Positions 22,455 through 50,198 of a DNA stretch of 64,000 nt are shown here, in pieces. The translations under genes were made by a program, and so were the position numbers. Source of the stretch: Mobula hypostoma (taxonomy: Eukaryota); NCBI RefSeq assembly GCF_963921235.1, contig NC_086108.1:55678001-55742000 (forward strand), given 5' to 3'. The notes beneath the pieces were generated by a model. That model worked only from the letters and a program-made list of their open reading frames with translations. It had not been told where the DNA came from and did no database searches. Every line of letters begins with the position of its first letter. The first letter of the stretch is position 1.

Positions 22455-25400
22455 AGACCACAAGACCATAAGATATACAAGCAGAAGTAGGCCATTCAGC
22501 CCATCGAGTCTGCTCTGCCATTCAATCATGGGCTGATCCAATTTTTCCAGTCATCCCCACTCCCTTGCCTTCTCCCCATACCTTTTGATGCCCTGGCTAA
22601 TCAAGAACCTATCTATCTCTGCCTTAAATACACCCAATGACTTGGCATCCACAGCTGCTCATGGCAACAAATTCCTCAGATTTACCACCCTCTGACTAAA
22701 GTAATTTCTCCATATCTCTGTTCTAAATAGTCATCCTTCAATCCCAAAGTTGTGCCCTCTTGTCCTAGACTCCCCTACCATGGGAAATAACTTTGCCATA
22801 TCTAACCTGTTCAGGCCTTTTAACATTTGGAATGTTTCTATGAGATCCCCCCCCTCATTCTCCTGAACTCCAGGGAATACAACCCATGAGCTGCCAGACA
22901 TTCCTCATACGGTAACACTTTTGTTCCTGGAATCATTCTTGTGAATCTTCCCTGAATCCTCTCCAATGTCAGTATATCCTTTCTAAAATAAGGAGCCCAA
23001 AACTGCACACAATACTCCAAGTGTGGTCTCACGAGTGCCTTACAGAGCCTCAACATCACATCCCTACTCTTATATTCTATACCTCTAGAAATGAATGCCA
23101 ACATTGCATTCACCTTCTTCACCACTGACTCAACCTGGAGGTTAACCTTTAGGGTATCTTGCACAAGGGCTCCCATGTCCCTTTGCATCTCTGCATTTTG
23201 AGTTCTCTCCCCACCAAAGTGCATGAGCATACACTTTCCAACATATTTCATTTGCCACTTCCTTGCCCATTCCCCTTAACTATCCAAGTCTACAGACTTT
23301 CTGATTCCTCAACACTACCTGCCTCACCTCTCATCTTTGTATCATTGGCAAATTTAGCCACAGATCCATTTATACGCAGTCCAAATCATTGACATACATC
23401 GTAAAAAGCAGCTATCCCAACACCGACCCCTGTGGAACTCCACTGGTAACGAGCAGCCAACCAGAATAGGATCCCTTTAATCCCTCTCTCTGTTTTCTGC
23501 TGACCAGCCAATGCTCCACCCATGCTAGTAACTTCCCTGTAATTCCATGGGCTCTTATGTTGCTAAGCAGCCTCGTATGCAGCACTTTGTCAAAGAGCTT
23601 CAGAAAATCCAAGTATACCACATCCACTGCAAATACTTTGTCTATCCTACGTGTAATTTCCTCAAAAAATTGCAGTAGTTTAGTCAAGCAGCTTTTTCCT
23701 TTCAGGAAACCATGCTGGCTTTGTCCTATCTTGTCCTTGGTGTCAAGGTCTCTAAGGATCTAACTTGGTCCCAACGTATTGATGTAGTTATGAAGAAAAC
23801 AAGATAGCGGCTATGCTTTATTAGGAGTTTGAAGAGATTTGCATGTCAACAAGTACACTCAAATCTTCTTTAATTGTACAGTGGAGAGCATTCTGACAGG
23901 CTGCATCACTGTCTGGTATGGAGGGGCAACTGCACAGGACCAAAAGAAGCTGCAGAAGGTTGTAAATCTAGTCAGCTCCATCTTGGGCACTAGCCTACAA
24001 AGTACCAGGACATCTTTAGGGAGCAGTGTCTCAGAAAGGCAGCGTCCATTATTAAGGACCTCTAGCACCCAGGACATGCCCTTTACTCGCTGTTACCATC
24101 AGGTAGGAGATACAGAAGCCTCACACACTCAGTGATTAAGGAACAGCTTCTTCCCCTCTGCCATCTGATTCCTAAATGGACATTGAAGCTTTGGACACTA
24201 CCTCACTTTGTTTAATATGCAGTATTTCTGTTTTTGCACATTCTTTTAAATCTATTCAATATACGTGTTTGATTTACTTGCTTATTTATTATTAAGTTTT
24301 ATTTTATTTATTATTTTTTTCTCTCTCTCTCTGCTAGGTTATGTATCACATTGAACTGCTGCTACTAAGTTAACAAATTTCACGTCACATGCTGGTGATA
24401 ATAAACCTGATTCTGATTCTGATGTGCCTCTAGGTGCTCCATAATCTCATCCCTAACAATTGATTCCAACAACTTCCCAACCACTGATGTCAGGCTAACA
24501 GGTCTATGGTTTCCTTTCAGCTGCTTCCCACCCGTAAAAAAGCTTTCAGTATCTTCTTTGATATTAGTCACCAGCTTCCTTTCATAATTTATCTTTTCCT
24601 TCCTAATGACCTTCTTAGTTTCCTTCTGCAAGTTTTTAAAAGCATCCCAATCTTTTATCTTCCCACAGCTTTGGCTTCCTTCTATGCCCTCTCTTTTCCT
24701 TTTACTTTGGCTCTGATATCACTTGTCAGCCATGGTAGTGGCCTTCCTCCATTCAAAAATGTCGTCTTATTTGGAATATATCTGTCTTGCACTGTCCTCA
24801 TTTTTTGCAGAAGCTCCAGCTATTGCTGCTCTGCTGTCCTTCCTGCTAGTGTCACTTTCCAGTCAACCTTGGCCAGTTCCCCTCTCATGCCATTGTAATT
24901 TCCTTTATTCCACTGAAATACCGACACATTGGAATTTACTCAAATTTAAAAGTGAACTTGATTATACTATGATCACTGTTCCCTAAGGGTTCCTTAACCT
25001 TAAGCTCTGTTATCACCTCCGGATCATTGCGCAACACCCAATTCAACACAGCCAATCCCCTAGTAGGCTCAACAACAAGCTGCCCTAAAAAGCCATCCCT
25101 TAGACATTCTACAAATTCTCTCTCTTGAGGTCCAGTACTGGCCTGGTTTGCCCAATCTACTTTCATGTTAAAATCCCCAAAGATTATCATGACATTGCCC
25201 TTCTGACATACCTTTTCTATATCCTGCTGTAATATGTAATCTACATCCTGGCTGCTGTTTGGAGGCCTGTATACAACTGCCATTAGGGTCCTTTTATCCT
25301 TGTCATTTTTTAACTCAACCCCTTGAGATGCTACACCTTCCAATCCTATGTCATCCCTTTCTAATGATATAATATTATTTCTTATACACAGGGCCACACC

Positions 25401-25560
25401 ACTCCCTTTGCCTACTAACCTGTCTTTCCAATACACCATATATCCTTGGACATTCAGCTCCCAATGGCAGCAAAACTTTAACCAAGTTTCAGAGATGGCC
25501 ACAACGTCATACTTGCCAATCTGTAGCTGAATTTCAAGCTCATCCATTTGCCTTTTCATC
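22455..25560 (-). mobile_element. CR1 LINE (APE endonuclease + RT remnants)
   Basis: YDVVAISETWL, VVYRPPNS, GDFN, RPVSLTSVVGK, SGVPQGSVLG and LVRPHLEYCVQFW motifs; reversed tail aagaccataaga. Confidence 0.92.
23745..24423 (+). mobile_element. Rex1/Babar LINE 3' end nested in CR1
   Basis: CTVESILTGCITVWYG motif; tail ataaacctgattctgattctgat. Confidence 0.88.
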
Positions 25561-26809
25561 AGACACTGTTTGACTTTCAGATGGTTTCCAGCATTTTCTT
25601 TTTTTTTGTTTAGCGGTTCTTTGCTGTAGTGGTCCAGCATTTGGCTTGGGGGCAGGGAGGTGCAGAGAGAAAGGGAGTTTGGATAACTTTCAGACTTCAA
25701 AAGATCAAAATCAAGAATTTACTGATTGTATGCCGAGAGATTGTCATGATTATCATCCTCGAGCAAGGGTAATGAACCTTTTCAAAAATTCTTATTACCA
25801 CATTTAATTGCATCTGTGAAAACATATCTGCATCTAATTACTAAAATTTAGCCCTAATATTTACATGATTACCACTGATTTCTGAGAGCTCAGAAGACCG
25901 AATAGAAAATAAGGCCAAGTTTAATTTCTTCTGTGGCCAGCGCATTTCATCAACCTAATGAGACCTTAAAAATGTAAGATTAGGATCAGATTAGGATTAG
26001 GTTTGAATTTGATGAAGTGATATTGACTATTTCCCTCCACTGATACTACTTCACTTGCTGAACTCGTCCAGCTTTTGTGTTTGTTGCTCAAGTTTTCCAC
26101 AATCTGTAGAATCCTTTGAGTCTAGAATTAGGATCTGAATGTCTTTGTGAACTCATCAAAAGGGCAGATCATTACCCTCCATGGTGGAGATGATGTAGTG
26201 CAGTAGAATCAGCACCTTTTTAGGGGTGTGCATAGAAGGGATGTCACAAGAAGCATCATCAATGTCACAGGATTTGCAGGCAGAGCTTCAGCTTTCTTGG
26301 AGGAGCAGTCCTTCAGCCACATGACACTGCCATGAGCGGACCCACTGTTCATTGACCTTGATAGACATGTACTTCCTCTGGTTGTGACAGTAACCATGCC
26401 CATCTCATCTTTTAAAAGCTTGCAGTCATGGCCAACAAAATACCCAGGATTGTCCAGCCAGTTATATTAAACATATACAGTAAAGCTATAAAGCGTTCTT
26501 AAGTGAGTTGATTACCATGGCTGAAGATTATTTGAACTTACTATGATATCAATACCCAAAGTGAGGTGTGAGTCAATTCTCTTTAATAAGTAAGTCTAAC
26601 ACAATATGTTAGGAAGGCAAATCAACATTTATTTGAAATAAAATGAAGTAAATGCACAGCTATGAAAAAATAAACATCTCCAATGATTTCAAACATCCTC
26701 AAATGATAGTTTTATACCAGTTGTTAGAATCTAAACTCATCCTTTTCAGATGTGGTTACATAGAACTGATCTAAATGACTCAGTCAACAAAATTGACACA
26801 TCTTGATGT

Positions 26810-27078
26810 TGGGAAGGAGGATCAGAAGCCTGAAGGCACACACTCAGGAACAACTTCTTCCCCTCTGCCATCCAATTTCTAAATGAACATTGAACTCATA
26901 AACACTACCTCACTACTTTTTTTTTGAACAACTTATTTTACCTTAACTATTTAGTAGGCATATAGTATATATTCTTAATTCATTTTTTAATTTATATTTA
27001 TTTCATTGTACTGCTGCTGTAAAGTTACCAGATTCCAAGACATATGCCAGTGATATTAAACTTGATTCTGGCTCTGAT
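26810..27078 (+). mobile_element. Rex1/Babar 3' tail fragment
   Basis: aacttcttcccctctgccatc... ending attaaacttgattctggctctga; matches 24100-24423. Confidence 0.75.
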
Positions 27079-27619
27079 CGTATTCCTTAATGACAATGGC
27101 ACTTTACAAAGTTCCTGTTCCACCTAAACCAACAGTCTTGACTGACTTCTGACCAGAAAGTTCCACTGTACGCTACAGTCATAAGTTTTCTTGCAGAAGT
27201 GAAATCAAATTACATTACATTGGGGTCCTAGATCTATTTGAAAACCTATTTGATGATAGTTGTCTAATTCTCGTTAAAGTGCAACACATTCTCCATCATC
27301 CAAACCACAAGCTTGGACCACATTGGTAATAGAAACTGTTCTTCCTGTTTCTTCATGTCTCTTTATGTGCAGCTATTTGTTTTCCAAAATTAAGGCTCTT
27401 TTCACACCCCACACAATAGTTACGGCCCACGGAGGTCAGCATGTTAAACCCATGGCCACTTTAGGTGAGAGCTAGACCCACTCTATCAAGAGACAGTCTC
27501 ATCCCCTCACTCCTCAGACCCGCAAATTATTTTCCTACATATGAGATTTTGGATCCCTTTTGATTGCTGCCCTTTGAATCTTGAATACTACATCTAGAAG
27601 TATATCCAGACCTCAACCA

Positions 27620-28110
27620 CGCAGTTCCGCTAACTGCATTACAGGAAAGATGTGGAAGCTTTAGAAAGATGTAAAAGAGTTCACAAGGATGTAGTGTGGA
27701 TTAGGGAGTATCAATTATAAAGAGAGATGATTGTAATCTCTAGAGCATCAAAGGCTGAGGGAGAAACTGATTAAAGTACATTAAGTCATGATGGGTTGAT
27801 AACTAGTCTTTTGTTCCCGCTGTGGAAGTGTCAATTACTATAGGGAACTGTTTTAATGCAAGAGGAGTAAAATGTAAAGAGGATTTATAAAACAAGTTTT
27901 TGTTTGACACAGAGTGGTAGGTACCTGTGATGGAACCTGATATGACAGCAAACAGGTGTTTCGGTCCCATGAACTGAAAGAGAGTTGAAGGAACCGCACA
28001 TGGAGCAGGCAGATGTGCAGTGTGAAGTTGGCATCGTGGTCGGCATACATGTGAGGGGATGAAGGGCCTGTTCCTGCACTGTACTGCTTTCCTGTTCTAT
28101 GTTCTTATAG
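27620..28110 (+). mobile_element. Old CR1 3' fragment
   Basis: Resembles QFW..YRKDVEALE coding DNA, acagagtggtaggtacctg and the tail ttctatgttc. Confidence 0.65.
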
Positions 28111-28979
28111 ACGTGAGAAATATGAGAGCCTTCTGAATTCATCCTTCTCTTGGATCAATGCTACATAATACGACAACACTACTGCAGATCAGATTGGTGA
28201 ATTTGGCCATGTGCTGCAAGGGCTACAGTTCAGCCATCCTGATCACTGACTATTTGCATTAGTAGAGTGCTGCTGTAAATACAGTGAATATTGTTGGGTT
28301 ACATCATAGTTTGACGAAACATAGAGCCCTAAAGTAAAAATTGGTTGATGCTTTTGATATAAAAATCCCTAATTCTAACCGGCTTAATAAACTTGCTGGC
28401 TTTATCGTGCACAATATCCAAGCTAATCCCTTCAATCATGTTAATATTAGGGGTGATAAATTTAATGTGAAAGGCACCCAAAGCAAGAATTGTCAATAGT
28501 TGTATGTATGCAAGTGCATGACTGCCCTCTTTAGAGGTTTTGCAATGTAGCCAAGTGCTGCTTCCAGGTGTGAATGCTTAGCCATCTGGACCAAAAATGG
28601 GAAGTTCCCCTCTCTGCAAGTTGAGCAGTGAGTGTTGAGGCAACACAAAGTTACATACCGTTCCTGAGGCAAGTTTTCTCAGAGCGAAGCTGATTTTGAC
28701 TTCTGACTATGAAAGCAATGGAAACACATCTGTGATTAAGTTTTTCTATCCTGGGGAGGGGATACAGATGTAAGCGAGGGCTCTTTTGCAGAAAGATTGC
28801 TTATATAGTCATTACACCATCAGCAGTGTATATAAAGAGTGTTTTCCTGTGAAGTTTAAGTGGAGAGGTTTCATTCCTCATCCTTTAAATGTCCTTCTTA
28901 TAATTTCCACTCATTTCTGATCAGATGAATGTAGAACCATTTTTGTTCTTACAGGTTTCTAATGAATATGATTTAGGAG

Positions 28980-30830
28980 CACGAGCAGCTCACCCAACCC
29001 CTAGGTCTTCTCTGCCATCTAATGAGATCATGGCTGAACTAATAGTAACTTGAATTCTGTATTTCCATTTACCTGCAGTAACCTTTCTCCTCCCTACTTA
29101 TAAAGTATTTGACCACTTTTCCCTTAAAAAATTTTCAAAGACTTTCCTTCCCCCACCTTTAAGGAAAAGAGCTCCAAGTATACACAACTGAAAGAAAAAA
29201 ATAATTACATCTCCTTCTTAAGTGGATGATGCTTTATTTTTAAACAATTATCCCCAATCATAGATTTCTCCATAACAAGAAACATCCTGTCAGGACCTTT
29301 CAGGTCCCTTTATGGTCTATATTTTCCAGCCATTGCAGACCCTGCCTGCCCAACCCTTCCCAAATGAAGAACCACTCATTCCAGATATTAGAATCTCAGA
29401 ATAATTTCAAATCACTGGTATATCTCATGAAGTTTGCTGTTCTGCGATAGCTGTTCATTGCAATACATAGTAATTTTTAAAAACTGTAAATTACAAAAAT
29501 AAACGTATATAATAAGTTAGATAAATAATGCAAAAAGAGAGCAAAAAAAGAAAAATGAAGAAAAAATAGTGAGGTAGGGTACATGGGTTCATGGCTTATT
29601 CAGAAATCTGATGGCAGAGGGGAAGAAGCTGTCCTGAAACATTGAGTGTGTGACTTCAGGCTCCTGTACCTCCTCCTTGATGGTAGCAATGAAAAGATTT
29701 GTCGGGTAAAGCTTCTCTGAAGTACATCCACTGCAATAATTCCTGAAATAACCAGACCAGTCATTACAGATGTGATCTCAGCAAGGCTTTTTATAATTTT
29801 CATGCTTTTGTTATGTTGCCCTGGCAATTAAAAACAACATTTTTGCTAGTCTTCCCAATTAATTGATCTACCTATATACTAGTCTTTTGTGAATCATGCA
29901 TACTCCTAGATCCCACTATAAGTACCTGTAAAAATTCTGCAGTTCTTTACCATATAGATAAAATGATTTTTTAAAATTTTCCTGAAGCCACATTGCAACA
30001 CCTCTGTTCATCCACTTAATCCAGATTCCTTGTAGCCACCTTCAGTCAAACTCAGCATTTATTGTCATGTGCATATGTCCGTTTGCAGAGGTCTAGTGAA
30101 AAACTGGCCTGCAGCTCTATCACAGTCAAATAGCTTCATATGAATAGTATTCACAAGGGAAACATAAATTAAGCACTATTTTACAAGAAATGAATTGAAT
30201 TGAATCAAATTGAAATGAACACAATTAGAACTAAGTGGTCATGGTGTTGCTGTACTCTAGTGATTAAGTTGTGTTGGTTGGTTCAAGAACCATGTGTTGG
30301 GTGGAATTAGTTGTTCTTGAACCTGGTGGTGTAGGACTACAGGATTCTGTACAGCTTCTCTGCTAACTGTTTGTCAACTTATTTAGGTATTATTAGCAAA
30401 TTTAGCAAAACTATTACATTCTATGCCTTCATCTGAAATATTTATATTGATTGTGAAAGTTCAGACCCCAGCAATGATCCCCATACCCTGTCACTTATGA
30501 TAGCTTGCCAATCAGCAAAAGGTCTTCTTTTGGCTGCTGTCTGCTCTATTTCTCGCAATAACTTTTGATAAGGCTTCTTATCAAATAACTTCTGTTAATC
30601 TAAGTGTTGTAGATCCACCAGTTCCACTTTATGGGTAGCATGTATTTTTTCCCTCAAAGACACCAATATCTTGGCCAAAGCTGATTTCCCTTTGATAAAA
30701 CCATGTTAATTTTGCTTGATTACCATGAACATTTCCATATGTGCTGATTTATCTTTAATAATTGTGTTTAATATTTTCCCAGTGACAGAATTAAGCTAAT
30801 AACCTGAAGCTTCCTGTTGCCTGTCTCTCT
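28980..30830 (-). mobile_element. Old CR1 fragments with nested Rex tail (~29392-29700) and another LINE tail
   Basis: Reversed CR1 3' end; aaaccatgttaatttt (QHGF, minus) near 30700; Rex tail agaatctcagaat. Confidence 0.55.
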
Positions 30831-32339
30831 TCCTGTCTTCTGGCATTTGATGCGCTGTAACTGAAACCTTGAGTACATGCAGTGACTGGGCTCCAATTTT
30901 CAATCTGTTTGTCTTTTGTCAAGAGGTATTGTAACACTTTGTTACACCATGCAGGACAAATGTATGTAGTCCTTTAAATATTATTGCAATTTGAGTTTTC
31001 AGCATTAGTAAAAGCTTTCTGCACAACAGAACTCAAGTAGATTGAAAATGAGATCCCAATCACTAGACCCAGAAGTGGTTTCAGCCACCACCTTACTGTG
31101 AATGAACAGTCCTAATGCCAGAGCAGTAGAAAGTCCTGCCAAAGTAAATTGTGGACATAGCATGCAAATATTGACATCATTAGGTTCTCTGAATGCCAGG
31201 GTTCTTAGAGCACACTAAGTTTCACAACAAAACAAAATCCTTACTAATGAATTTAGGCATTTTGAATGTAGAAGGTTAAACAACGATGTCCTCATTTTAA
31301 TTAAATAAAAACTTGGAAGGAATCACCTGGTTAGCTAATCTTGTGAATAAAGTGTGTTGCTGTACTGTAGGGATCAGATATGTCTACCAGGGAATTATTG
31401 AGCAATTAAAAATCACTGTTACATGAACTGGATAAAGAGTGTTCTGGGGCGGGGGGAGTGGTATTGGAATAAGCTTCCAATTACAATCCCTTGTTACTCA
31501 GACTGGAAAGAATACATTTTTGGCAAGATTGGAAATAAGCATGGTTTTTTACAACCACCTGGGGTAGAACTGTCAAGGCTCCCGAATAAATTAAAATGTG
31601 GATGTGGAACTAAAAGTCTGCCAGTAAATTGAAAACTGTACTGTTGAAGTCAGAATTTTAATTGAATCCAGGGGTGTGTATAAGAATAAGTAATCCAGAC
31701 CTATCTTTTTCCCATGAAATAGTTAGCTTGAAGTCAAGCAGAATACAAATCAAAATACTAGAACATCCTGAGTCAAGACCCATTTCTTTTTGCAGAAAAG
31801 CATATTTGCTGTAGATAGCTACTAGAGGGCGTACTTCACCATATTGTGATGAATTTTTGAGGAACATACAAACAAAAGCGAGTGCTATTTCTAATATGTT
31901 TAATTGGATTAAAATTGGTTTAACCTGAGTTACTTTACCTACTATGTTTTAAAATAATTTACTTCTTTGATGTGAAACGTAATGAATATTTTGAAATTAG
32001 TGTCTAACCTAAAGGATCAATTGTCTCCTTATGTATCACAGCCCCTTGTGGAGGGTTTCCCTGTATTCTTTGTGAATCTCTATCACTTCATTGAAATAAG
32101 CGTGTAGGATTCTCAGTGTAGATTGGCCATATGCTCAGACTGGAATACGCTGCAGGTGTTTGTTAGTATAGCTGATGGAGCCAAAAACTGATGGTGAGGT
32201 GAGAGGCATCAAAATTTGCACCATTTTGTAGCAGTTGTCTTTAATATTTTCATTTTGCTACTGGGTTAAAAATGAGTTTAATAGCCCTAGGAGAGAGGAA
32301 AAGCACTCCTTTTATTGAGAAAAATCTGAATTGTGTTTC

Positions 32340-33390
32340 CTCATCCAGTAGCACGTACATCGACTTTGATGAAGTGCTTTGAGAGGTTGGTGATGAAACA
32401 TATCAACTCTTGCCTGAAGAGCAACTTGGATCCACTCCAGTTTACCTACTGTACTGTCACAATAAATCAACAGCAGATACCATTTGACTCAACCCTGGAG
32501 CACCTGTACAATGAAGATGCATACATCAGAATGCTCTTCGTTGACTACAACTTAACTTTCAACTCTATCATCCCATCAAAACTCATCATTAAGCACCAAG
32601 ATCGGGTCCTCGATACTTTCCTGTACAAATGGATCCTCAATTTCCTCATAGACAGACTCCAATCAAAACAGATTAGCAACAACATATCCTCTACATTCAC
32701 CATCAGCACAGGTGTACCACAGGGCTATGTGCTTCACTCCCCTGCTCGACTCGCTTAACATCTATGATTGTGTGACTAAACACAAGCCCGGTGCTGTATT
32801 TAAGTTTGCTGACAACACCACTGCTGTCTGCCAAACAAAAGCTGGTAACAAATTAACATATAGAAAAGAGATTGAAAATCTGATTGGTGCCGTAACACCA
32901 ACCTCTCACTCAATGTCAGCAAAACAAAAGAGCTGATTATTGACTACAGGAAGCAGAAGCAGAAGATCCATGAGCCAGTCTTCTTCAGGGAAACAGAGGT
33001 GGAGAGGGTCAGTAACTTTAATTTCCTTGACACTATCATATCAGAGGATCTGTCCTGGAATCAGCACGTATGTGCCATTACAAAGAAGGCATGAGAACAC
33101 CACTACTTTCTTCGAAGTTTGAGCAGATTTGAAATGTCTTCTATAGATGTACAGGGGGAAGTATCCTGACTCACTCAGTCTGGTATGGAAACACCGATGC
33201 CCAAGAATGGAAAAGCCTACAAAAAAGCGGTGGATGCTGCTCAATCCATCTACAAGAAGAGCTGCCACAAGAAGACAGTATTCATCGTCAAGGACCCACC
33301 ATCCAGGCCATGCTGTCTTCTCACTACTACCTTGGGCCTGAAGGTCAGGAGCCATAGGCCCACACCACCAGCTTCAGGAACTGTTATCAC
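32340..33390 (+). mobile_element. Rex1/Babar LINE RT fragment
   Basis: MKCFERLVM, DPLQF, RMLFVDY, TGVPQG and KFADNTT motifs. Confidence 0.88.
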
Positions 33391-45679: not shown

Positions 45680-46962
45680 CAAGACAGCAGAGCTTATTTT
45701 TGCAGGTTTGATTGGAACAGCCAAACTTCAAAGCAAACTATATGCCTTTAAGCCTAATGTGTCTGGCAGAATTAGTACTCGTTTCTTGTCGGTTATTTCA
45801 TTTGCTTCAAAATACTGTTCCAATAGTTCAGTATACATAAGCCAATTACCCATTATGTAATCAGACTCGTCAGCCTTTCCGATGTAACCAGCCATTTTGT
45901 GATTTTTTTAATGATTAGTATCACCCCGTACTCACAACTTATGTACCCTGACCTCTTCCATTTCCTGCCTTAAAAAAAAAGCCAATCATATCTTCCCTTG
46001 TGAAGAACATGTGTTGGCTGCTTCTGTTTTAAACTTGACCACCTCTCCATGTGATGGGGTGTCTTTTTTACTCTCCGATGTTCCTGCTGTGTTTTATTTT
46101 ATTTCAAACATCAGTAACTGTCTCAGGTTCATTTTAAAATACCTGGTTGCCAATGTTATGCTTGTAACTTCAAAACTTTAAATCAGTTCAAAGAAAAAGT
46201 GGGGAATCTGATATACCTGTGTAACTTCAAGTTTACTTTAAGCAAAGTGCACATGTGTCACATGGTAGTGTGATGTCGTTTGCAGTTAACATAGTTTTAC
46301 ATATAACCCGTAATTAATTATTTCAACAAACAAGGATGCGTAATCAACAACATATTTACGAAATTACTTATGTAATGGCCTCTCTGTAATGTTAACTGCT
46401 GAGTTAATGGTTTCTCTGTAGCTGCGATGTTTGGGTTATGACTAGAGATAATGGGACTTTAGTATTCAGGGCTATCCAATGGGAGGAGTGTTATTCTTTC
46501 TTGTGTATCTGGGAACCGGAGTTTTCCACGGGTTTTCGGTCGAGGAGAGCGAAGAGGAAGGATGCGTGTGGAGAGCGCTGATAGACCACCAGATGGCATA
46601 TATGGAATTCGAAGGTCCGAGGGTCAGTGATGTTTCAGCTGAGGTCATTCGTGGAGGAATACCTGCTGCGTGAGCTCCAACGTATTTTGAGACTTTAACT
46701 GTGGGCCCTTTTTATTTTTGTTCGTTTATTTTCCTACTAACCCTATATTTGAATTAAGATTCATAAAGTTTATAATTTGATTGTATATGGTGTACTGTCT
46801 GATATTTTGCATTGTGGGTTTGTGACGGGAATACATTACATAGCATCCACCCAAACTTGAATACCCTGTTTGGCGGGACCGAAAGCTGATTCCCCTGGAC
46901 AAACATGAGCGGCAAACCTGGTGGGTTACACTTAAAATAGCTGAAATATTAACTACACAACA
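45680..46962 (-). mobile_element. Truncated Gypsy LTR retrotransposon (5' LTR 46154-46962, PBS, gag start)
   Basis: LTR reads tgttgtgtagttaatatttcag...cataaca on minus; PBS-like tggcaaccagg; gag MAGYIGK..YTELLEQYFEANEITDKKRV from 45895. Confidence 0.85.
46371..46930. mobile_element. Solo LTR of a different family nested in the Gypsy LTR
   Basis: TGTAA...TTACA termini; 4-bp TSD CTTA at 46367-70 and 46931-34. Confidence 0.85.
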
Positions 46963-48273: not shown

Positions 48274-50198
48274 TGTTGTGTAGTTAATATTTCAGTAATA
48301 TTTGAGTAATTTTGTAAATATATTGTTGGATTAAGCATTCTTTGTTGTTCATATAATTCAGAGTAGTTATATGAAAAAATAAGTGAATTGCATACATCAT
48401 CATACAACCACAGTGAAGGCAAATGCAAGGGTAAACTCACAATTTGGACTCCTGTGTCTTCCTTTGAATTAGTTAAGTGTTTTGAAGTTACAAACCATAA
48501 CAGTGGCGATGGAGTAATTTTAAAACAAACCGGAGACAACTACCAATCTGTTGAAGCACAGCGAGATGCTCAAACTAAAAATAAGAGTAGAGGGGAATGG
48601 AGGGTAAAGAAACACAGCCTCGCACGTGTCGAGGCAGGTGAGTTAAAATAAAAGCAGTGTAACATATGTTCTTTGGAAACAAAGACACGATCAAGTATAT
48701 ATAAAAGAATCAGAAAATGGAATAATTCATGAGTTTATAAAGAGTGAGTATCGGATGATATTAAAAAAAAGCAGAAATGGATGGCTACATCAGACATATT
48801 GATGTGTTTGATTTCACAAAAGGGTGGCTAGAGTAGGCATATTGATCTAATTGAACTGTATTTTGAAGCAAATGAAATAACCAATGAGAAACGAGTGCCA
48901 ATTTTATTTGCACGTTTGAGCTTGCATGTGGTACAAACAAAAGAACCAGCATCGTGCGGGCATGATTGGCTGAGGCAACTACAATTTGTTTGGGGATTCA
49001 TCTGCCATTTGCATGCCACATCCCCTGCAATGAAGCCAACTGAAAGTGAATTAAGAAAGGTACTGGATAATAGCAAAACTGTCTCCATGCTGAACACCAT
49101 GAACCATGGCCCAACAGAGGGCCAACGGGTGTTGGTGCCAACTTCTGTACCTCTGGTTGGAAAACATATTGGATGAAGGAAGGATCATGCTGCTCAGAGG
49201 AATCATGAAAGTGACAAAAACAGAGATCCGACTACAGCAATTTTTGTAGGCAACATTTCTGAAAAAATTTCTGAAATGTTATTCAGGCAGTTACTGCAAA
49301 ACTGCGGCTTGATTTTAAGGAGTTTGAGGAGTCTCAGGAAAGTTGCAAACATGTGGCTTTTGTAATTAAAAATCTAAAGTTACTGTTTGAATTTCAAATG
49401 GAAAAGAAAAAGCTGCTTGTAACAGTAGATGCAAAGACCAGAGTTCAGCTGAATAAATGGAAGGCCAAAAAGAAAGAAGTCAATGGAGATACAAAAACAG
49501 GGGATTCATCAGATGATGTTGTGCTTGAGGAAACAAAGAGGACATATCAGATCGTAAAGGAAGCAATCGGATTAATAAGAGAATATTCTAGTGAATCAAA
49601 TGGATCTTTCCAAGATCATGATGAACAAACTAGAAAAAGAAAAAGGAAAAAGAAAGGTGTCCAAATCTATCAGAACTATTCCTGCAGTCTCAGAGTCATC
49701 TCCTACAACCAAAACAGAGCAGGCCCAGAACCTGGGACTGTTTCACAGCCACAATTCTCACCTACCAAACAAGGAGATTCCCCTAGTCAGGAAAGACGTT
49801 ATCCCACAAGAGTGAGAAGTCCTCCACAGCAATTAAATCTTTGGGCTGAATGGAACAATTTCAAGATTTACTATGCTGTATATAGTAGTTGTGTTATATA
49901 GTGTACTGTGCATATAGTTGAAATGCATTCATTGTTGAGTTGGAACTTATAGCTAAACAGGGAGGAATATTTCAGTAATATTTGAGTAATCTTGTCAGTA
50001 TATTGTTTGATTAAGCATTCGTAGTTTATATAATTCATTATGGTTATATGTAAAAATATGTGAACTGCATACATCATGACCCTACCACATGAGATACGCA
50101 CGCCTCACTTAAAGTAAACACAAAGTTAGACTCACATTTCAGACTCCTGCGTCTTCCTTTGAATTAGCTTTCATGTTTTGAAGTTATAGAACATAACG
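48274..50198 (+). mobile_element. Internally deleted Gypsy LTR element carrying a captured RBM25 fragment
   Basis: 5' LTR 48274-48502; PBS tggcgatggag; gag (IELYFEANEITNEKRVPIL) and protease-end (GHDWLRQLQ) remnants; integrase tail QERRYPTRVRSPPQQLNL; PPT aaacagggaggaa; 3' LTR ~49966-50198. Confidence 0.88.
49100..49657 (+). pseudogene. RBM25: Processed (intronless) RBM25 fragment, RRM region
   Basis: VLVPTSVPLVGKHIG*RKDH..PTTAIFVGNISEKISEMLFRQLL..CGL..SGKLQTCGFC..KKLLVTVDAKTRVQLNKWKAKKK..EETKR..LIREYSSE matches vertebrate RBM25; contains stops and frameshifts. Confidence 0.9.

Follow-up and report, generated by a model that had tools for sequence, protein, structure and literature searches.

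Structure of the element

In the 64-kb window (the whole stretch of DNA analyzed here) of Mobula hypostoma, positions 48274-50198 hold an LTR retrotransposon whose two LTRs, both present and on the same strand, enclose a fragment of the host gene RBM25, called the cargo below. The order LTR, primer-binding site (PBS), gag remnant, cargo, polyprotein tail, polypurine tract (PPT), and LTR on the plus strand, described in an earlier note on this DNA, was seen again, with corrections, and the features are as follows:

48274-48502, plus strand: 5′ LTR (TG...CA), from repeat comparison, lacking ~18 internal bases that the 3′ LTR has
48504-48514, plus strand: primer-binding-site-like motif, beginning TGG; a neighboring family copy has a TGG motif in the same place
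48777-48905, plus strand: putative 5′ gag remnant, broken by stops and a frameshift and followed by a large deletion
48950-49068 (start approximate), plus strand: putative protease end and polyprotein linker, in frame with the cargo
49069-49080, plus strand: 12 junction bases, likely the tail of the preceding RBM25 exon
49081-49128, plus strand: 48-base RBM25 segment, an alternative exon or exon extension (P0002, P0023, P0024)
49129-49299, plus strand: RBM25 exon of 171 bases with the RRM start and a stop at 49174 (X20 contig, HMMER matches)
49300-49349, plus strand: next RBM25 exon, which has lost bases in a frameshifting deletion (its end is given by P0038)
49350-49487, plus strand: following RBM25 exon with the remaining RRM, shortened by a deletion (P0040 and P0042 mark the exon end)
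49488-49657, plus strand: last captured RBM25 exon, with a purine-rich 3′ junction 3-9 bases short of the exon end (P0002 continues with a V codon after KKEE)
49658-49841, plus strand: C-terminal polyprotein tail (putative integrase tail, from position and motif)
49955-49965, plus strand: polypurine tract, from the sequence
49966-50198, plus strand: 3′ LTR, ending CG, with its first 12 bases missing, from repeat comparison

The LTR pair is 82% alike; of 216 aligned positions, 39 differ (p 0.18, K2P 0.21). The interior of the element (1.46 kb) is too short to accommodate reverse transcriptase (RT), RNase H, and the integrase core, and their absence, which had already been pointed out in the earlier note, was thus confirmed. 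The cis signals, namely the LTRs, the primer-site-like motif, and the purine tract, are retained in this copy. No recognizable target-site duplication (TSD) was found when the immediate flanks of the element were compared, TATG on the left and TGAG on the right matching at two of four bases, and the decay expected at such an age blurs a TSD.

The gag remnant at 48777-48905 showed a 66% match to the gag start of a neighboring copy, for whose gag DUF4939 was obtained as an Atlas lead at 0.91, and aspartic-protease clusters appeared as weak Atlas leads (0.79-0.81). An open frame at 48832-49176 runs from the protease linker into RBM25. None of the gag, protease, or integrase families of Pfam was recognized in the pieces of the element, protein searches with the element's own pieces returned no match, the tail at 49658-49841 had no database match, and the 52 HMMER matches contained no chimera and no gag or protease relative. 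We take the pieces to be gag, protease end, and integrase tail from their position and motifs. With these presumed labels, the order of the remnants (protease before the cargo, tail before the purine tract) fits Gypsy, and the element likely belongs to Gypsy (Ty3). The earlier description as a Gypsy element with gag, protease, and integrase parts agrees with the positions; Gypsy is likely, and the labels themselves are putative.

Identity and splicing of the cargo

The peptide from 49392-49658 (89 residues) had its best match in an RBM25-like protein of Heptranchias perlo (71% identity, E 2e-23), in agreement with the gene first proposed for the cargo and with a cartilaginous fish as the source of the window. 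There were 21 matches among 72 candidates; 20 of the 21 are named RBM25 or are annotated with an RRM/PWI domain, and a gene other than RBM25 is indicated by none of the 21. With P0023 and P0024 as queries, tblastn covered 49078-49317 and 49281-49655, and the match at 49078 opens with the final residue of the preceding exon in P0024. The cargo is therefore about 580 bases of RBM25, with its 5′ limit at 49078-49081 and its 3′ limit at about 49650-49657; it had been placed earlier at 49100-49657 (~550 bp), of which the end was about right, but the start lies about 25 bases earlier. The RRM of P0023 (residues 52-120, Pfam) is entirely inside the captured span, and the cargo ends at around residue 221 of P0024, about a quarter into a protein whose length is some 840 residues. 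The cargo carries no poly(A). A PDB search with P0023 returned other RRM proteins, none of the 41 chains being named RBM25.

The cargo is uninterrupted by introns across the exon junctions 49128/9, 49299/300, 49349/50, and 49487/8, and measures 580 bases compared with the 612 expected from the mRNA, so that the spliced source suggested at the outset holds at all four junctions. The exon ends were deduced from genomic open frames running past the exons and from an X20 contig. A V codon stands right after RQLLA in 40 of the 52 HMMER matches (5/52 are spliced to KCG and 7/52 are other), a Q-VL.P start is seen in 16 of the 52, and the three later exon ends are each given by single matches (P0038, P0040 with P0042, and P0002). 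The X20 contig (173 bases, depth 139) comes from a run whose nature as RNA is a guess; it aligns without a gap to 49128-49296, differs there at 22 letters, and has the size of the 171-base exon plus two bases. The captured exons presumably correspond to exons 4-7 in the numbering of human RBM25. Another X20 contig, of low depth, aligns only over this one exon (49128-49295), where 31 letters differ, and continues at either end into sequence that does not align; it corresponds neither to the main parent form, with its 22 differing letters, nor to a typical chimera.

The segment at 49081-49128 matches a 16-residue in-frame segment of P0002, P0023, and P0024 (shark isoforms and one Logan record), which is missing from the bony-fish, bird, and mammal-like RBM25 sequences compared. 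An old RBM25 isoform is preserved in the cargo as a fossil. In RBM25, the 16-residue segment is followed by a choice of two acceptors, 12 bases apart.

Junctions, replacement, and amplification

The 5′ junction is in frame, and six paralogous pieces pass over it without a gap, indicating that this register is shared. The 3′ junction is apparently in frame as well, judged by a motif. The cargo starts 0-12 bases before the exon start at 49081, and its other end falls 3-9 bases short of an exon end; each junction is thus no more than about 12 bases away from a splice site, for which we estimate a chance of ~4% under random switching (a rough, after-the-fact estimate). No TSD was found around the cargo when both junctions were inspected, and the earlier statement that the cargo has neither poly(A) nor a TSD of its own is correct. 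A 9-base direct repeat does lie near both junctions (49053-49061 and 49650-49658; 43 of 5000 shuffles reach it), but it was rejected as a TSD of the cargo, because its 5′ copy ends 7 bases inside sequence common to cargo-free members. Circular RBM25 RNA was also considered as a template and is unsupported, as the exons are colinear and the match reaches into the preceding exon.

The family was examined in contigs of four (X1, X5, X9, and X20) of 24 listed runs, with organisms D-I left out, and the comparison also left out 49625-49659, around the 3′ junction. In this comparison, 32 pieces are listed and 79,426 further ones exist, only matches of at least 80% count, and summed contig depth is not equal to copy number. 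At 49068, 184, 157, and 119 contigs (X1, X5, and X9, respectively) diverge into one shared continuation (agreement 0.72-0.77) that is absent from the 48274-50198 copy, which indicates that cargo-free members exist and that the cargo replaced the sequence that follows in them. The element is accordingly discontinuous, with the cargo in place of part of the internal ORFs. The 5′ junction is spanned by 14 of the 32 listed pieces, all of low depth, 80-87% alike to the 48274-50198 copy, and reaching 31 letters or more to either side of the junction (4 in X1, 2 in X5, 3 in X9, and 5 in X20; six without a gap). Because many diverged contigs run over the same 5′ junction, the chimera itself was multiplied, in line with the non-autonomous family that the earlier note had raised as a possibility. 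Among the listed pieces, the 3′ junction is spanned by two from X5, a paralogue (44 other letters) and the orthologue (4 other letters).

The cargo/flank depth, over seven bins each, was 37-1646 in X1 (median 402), 53-1943 in X5 (median 676), and 51-2519 in X9 (median 678), tens to thousands of times in each of three organisms, and the tail at 49658-49841 reached a depth of 22,840-32,915 compared with 16 in the flank. In X1 the flank depth is about 16 on both sides (range 14-30, single-copy) and jumps exactly at the LTR ends; 573 X1 contigs before 48274 and 203 after 48502 have unrelated loose ends. These loose ends, together with the depth jump, identify the LTRs as those of a dispersed family. 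The copy number of the hybrid is probably in the hundreds, perhaps over a thousand, and the hybrid likely arose once and then spread to hundreds of sites.

At 48905, 289, 247, and 210 contigs leave the window sequence, and some paralogous pieces have 40-146 unaligned bases upstream of 48961-48986, so that the gag-protease deletion of the 48274-50198 copy is likely not general. A 3-base difference just after 49567, carried by 204 of a depth of 239 in X20 and by 37 of 1860 in X1, was considered as a deletion common to all copies and rejected; the depth drops from 1860 to 537 at 49567, so most contigs are probably clipped there, and the deletion may be private to the 48274-50198 copy.

Age, decay, and expression

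Organism B has the same insertion, since one of its contigs passes over the 3′ end and reaches 61 letters inside the LTR with 5 other letters in 363. In organism C, a single-copy piece covers LTR, primer site, and gag, with 24 of about 430 letters differing, and a 3′ contig reaches only 26 letters inside the LTR; this organism probably carries the same insertion. The LTR-LTR divergence of 18%, compared with about 6% between organisms A and C, indicates that the insertion is roughly three times older than the A-C split. The only mutation rate found, 7e-10 (PMC10587355), is expressed per generation. The 48274-50198 copy differs from its parent exon by 13%, which, set against the 18% between its LTRs, suggests that the insertion likely took place soon after the capture.

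The RRM of the cargo contains the stop at 49174 and frameshifting deletions. Sixteen of 57 residues differ from P0023, and likewise from P0024, where 11-18 are expected from 22 random substitutions; residue changes at this neutral expectation argue that the copy has not been conserved as a protein. The RRM fragment is dead in the 48274-50198 copy, and its decay is neutral. An X20 contig of 169 bases (depth 5) is identical to 49156-49323, with the unique flanks without cover, and is a weak hint of transcription of this copy. Five further X20 pieces derive from other chimeric copies.

Origin of the hybrid family

The locus had been read in the earlier note as an LTR-mediated retrocopy, against which a best match other than RBM25, retained introns, or a poly(A) and TSD of the cargo in an otherwise colinear Gypsy element were to count; none of the three was found, the flanking element is not colinear, and the enzyme core is missing. 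We consider it probable that spliced RBM25 was captured by a double template switch on co-packaged mRNA and that the product was then mobilized in trans. Reverse transcriptase would have switched onto a co-packaged RBM25 mRNA and then back, the fragment being acquired once and taking the place of RT, RNase H, and the integrase core, and the hybrid would have been copied to hundreds of sites by the enzymes of intact relatives. The LTRs, primer site, and purine tract that were kept are what mobilization in trans would need. We infer the double switch, the trans mobilization, and the order of events, in which capture would have been followed soon by amplification and then by private decay, of which the gag-protease deletion is part. 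Most likely, the cargo was carried along as a passenger.

The nearness of both junctions to splice sites, together with the inclusion of the alternative segment in the cargo, could also be explained if element RNA had been spliced to RBM25 exons at one or both ends, either after read-through out of an element located in an intron of RBM25 or by trans-splicing, and had then been packaged, reverse transcribed, and amplified. We regard such splice-assisted capture as unlikely, because the match reaches back to the final codon of the exon before (49078), a GT at 49060 that resembles a donor was kept and not used, and the matches place neither cargo end exactly at a splice site; moreover, with exons as short as these (48-177 bases), a position close to a splice site is nothing unusual. 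It is quite unlikely that LINE enzymes placed a processed RBM25 fragment into an already deleted element, or into one that lost sequence at the site, and that the element was amplified afterward: LINE remnants are plentiful in the window and the 9-base repeat lies near both junctions, but 7 bases of element sequence separate this repeat from the junction, no joint that skips the cargo is found among the 15 joints listed (1406 more exist), and the cargo, as an internal fragment far from the mRNA 3′ end and missing a poly(A), lacks the poly(A), own TSD, and mRNA 3′ end of a LINE-mediated processed pseudogene.

We think it highly improbable that one locus gave rise to the copies by segmental or tandem duplication, although the contigs are short and no single paralogous piece covers an LTR end together with the cargo. 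The flanks are single-copy on both sides (14-30 in X1), the depth jumps precisely where the LTRs end, the sequences adjoining 48274 and 48502 are unrelated in hundreds of contigs, and the 64-kb window holds no second copy of the cargo. Domestication of this locus as a functional retrogene for an RRM protein, which the insertion kept in at least two organisms and the identical 169-base contig from the run guessed to be RNA, in which the flanks are without cover, might suggest, is just as improbable: the RRM has a stop at 49174 and frameshifting deletions, and the number of changed residues is the neutral one. A domesticated protein gene is thus largely refuted. A different matter is the founder of the family, which might have encoded a Gag-protease-RRM fusion whose RNA-binding domain and basic tail aided packaging or processing of the element RNA. 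The in-frame 5′ junction, the six gap-free paralogous pieces, the whole RRM in the cargo, and the apparently in-frame 3′ junction point in this direction; an in-frame 5′ junction arises by chance in 1 of 3 cases and so is only a lead for a functional fusion, which we consider rather unlikely. If true, the fusion would explain the large share of the hybrid in its family, and a retrotransposon would have acquired a functional component from a splicing factor of its host.

Comparison with known captures and significance

The RBM25 family consists of LTR-mediated retrocopies, a known kind of capture on an unusually large scale. According to the available portion of Tan et al. (2016; PMC5131818), such retrocopies replace part of the internal ORFs and keep retrotransposing, and microhomology is a hallmark of template switching, found at 25 of 29 junctions. 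The RBM25 chimera resembles the retrocopies described in that portion in having a partial spliced mRNA between LTRs in place of part of the ORFs, in lacking poly(A) and a cargo TSD, and in having gone through further cycles of non-autonomous retroposition, but it is old (LTRs 18% apart) and its depth points to hundreds of copies or more. In the excerpted account of two crocodilian elements, CrocERV29 captured KIT-ligand and CrocERV31 nectin3, in nine and six copies, respectively (PMC4299795). As far as this account goes, they too are old vertebrate LTR elements that made one capture, were multiplied with the cargo, and occur in related species. They are retroviral, whereas the RBM25 element is likely Gypsy-like; their cargo frames are intact and under purifying selection, whereas the RBM25 cargo copy decays neutrally; and their cargo lies between pol and env or replaces env, whereas the RBM25 cargo replaces the enzyme core. 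Maize Bs1 and the human FAM8A1 retrocopy in HERV-K, as cited in the same portion of PMC5131818, also have host exons inside LTR-element sequence, Bs1 being a plant element with pieces of three genes and FAM8A1 a single retroviral capture.

Our literature searches, outside of which Repbase and Dfam lie, returned no paper on an RBM25-carrying element, and RBM25 is not named in the main text of the VGP preprint (PMC13320880), as far as this is accessible, while the retrocopy tables of its supplement could list it. LTR-mediated gene capture has here grown into a large vertebrate repeat family, compared with about ten copies in the published cases in the source portions cited above. Retrocopy counts, the mapping of reads, and the annotation of genes can all be skewed by hundreds of copies of host exons, and, speculatively, such copies could be a source of small RNAs directed at an essential splicing factor. 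The many copies also permit a direct test of whether the cargo was a passenger or was selected during the activity of the family.

Surroundings of the element

The window contains 18 open frames of at least 130 residues, which we take from their motifs to be mostly LINE remnants or the opposite strands of these, and no host gene was recognized near the element. An inverted, truncated relative of the same LTR superfamily (66% alike), consisting of LTR, primer site, and gag start, lies on the minus strand at 45770-46368. Its LTR is 26% diverged from both LTRs of the RBM25 element, and it ends at about 45700, adjoining a LINE remnant. A separate 22-base LTR start is found at 46941-46962, about 580 bases from this relative, whose LTR therefore seems to have been split by another insertion.
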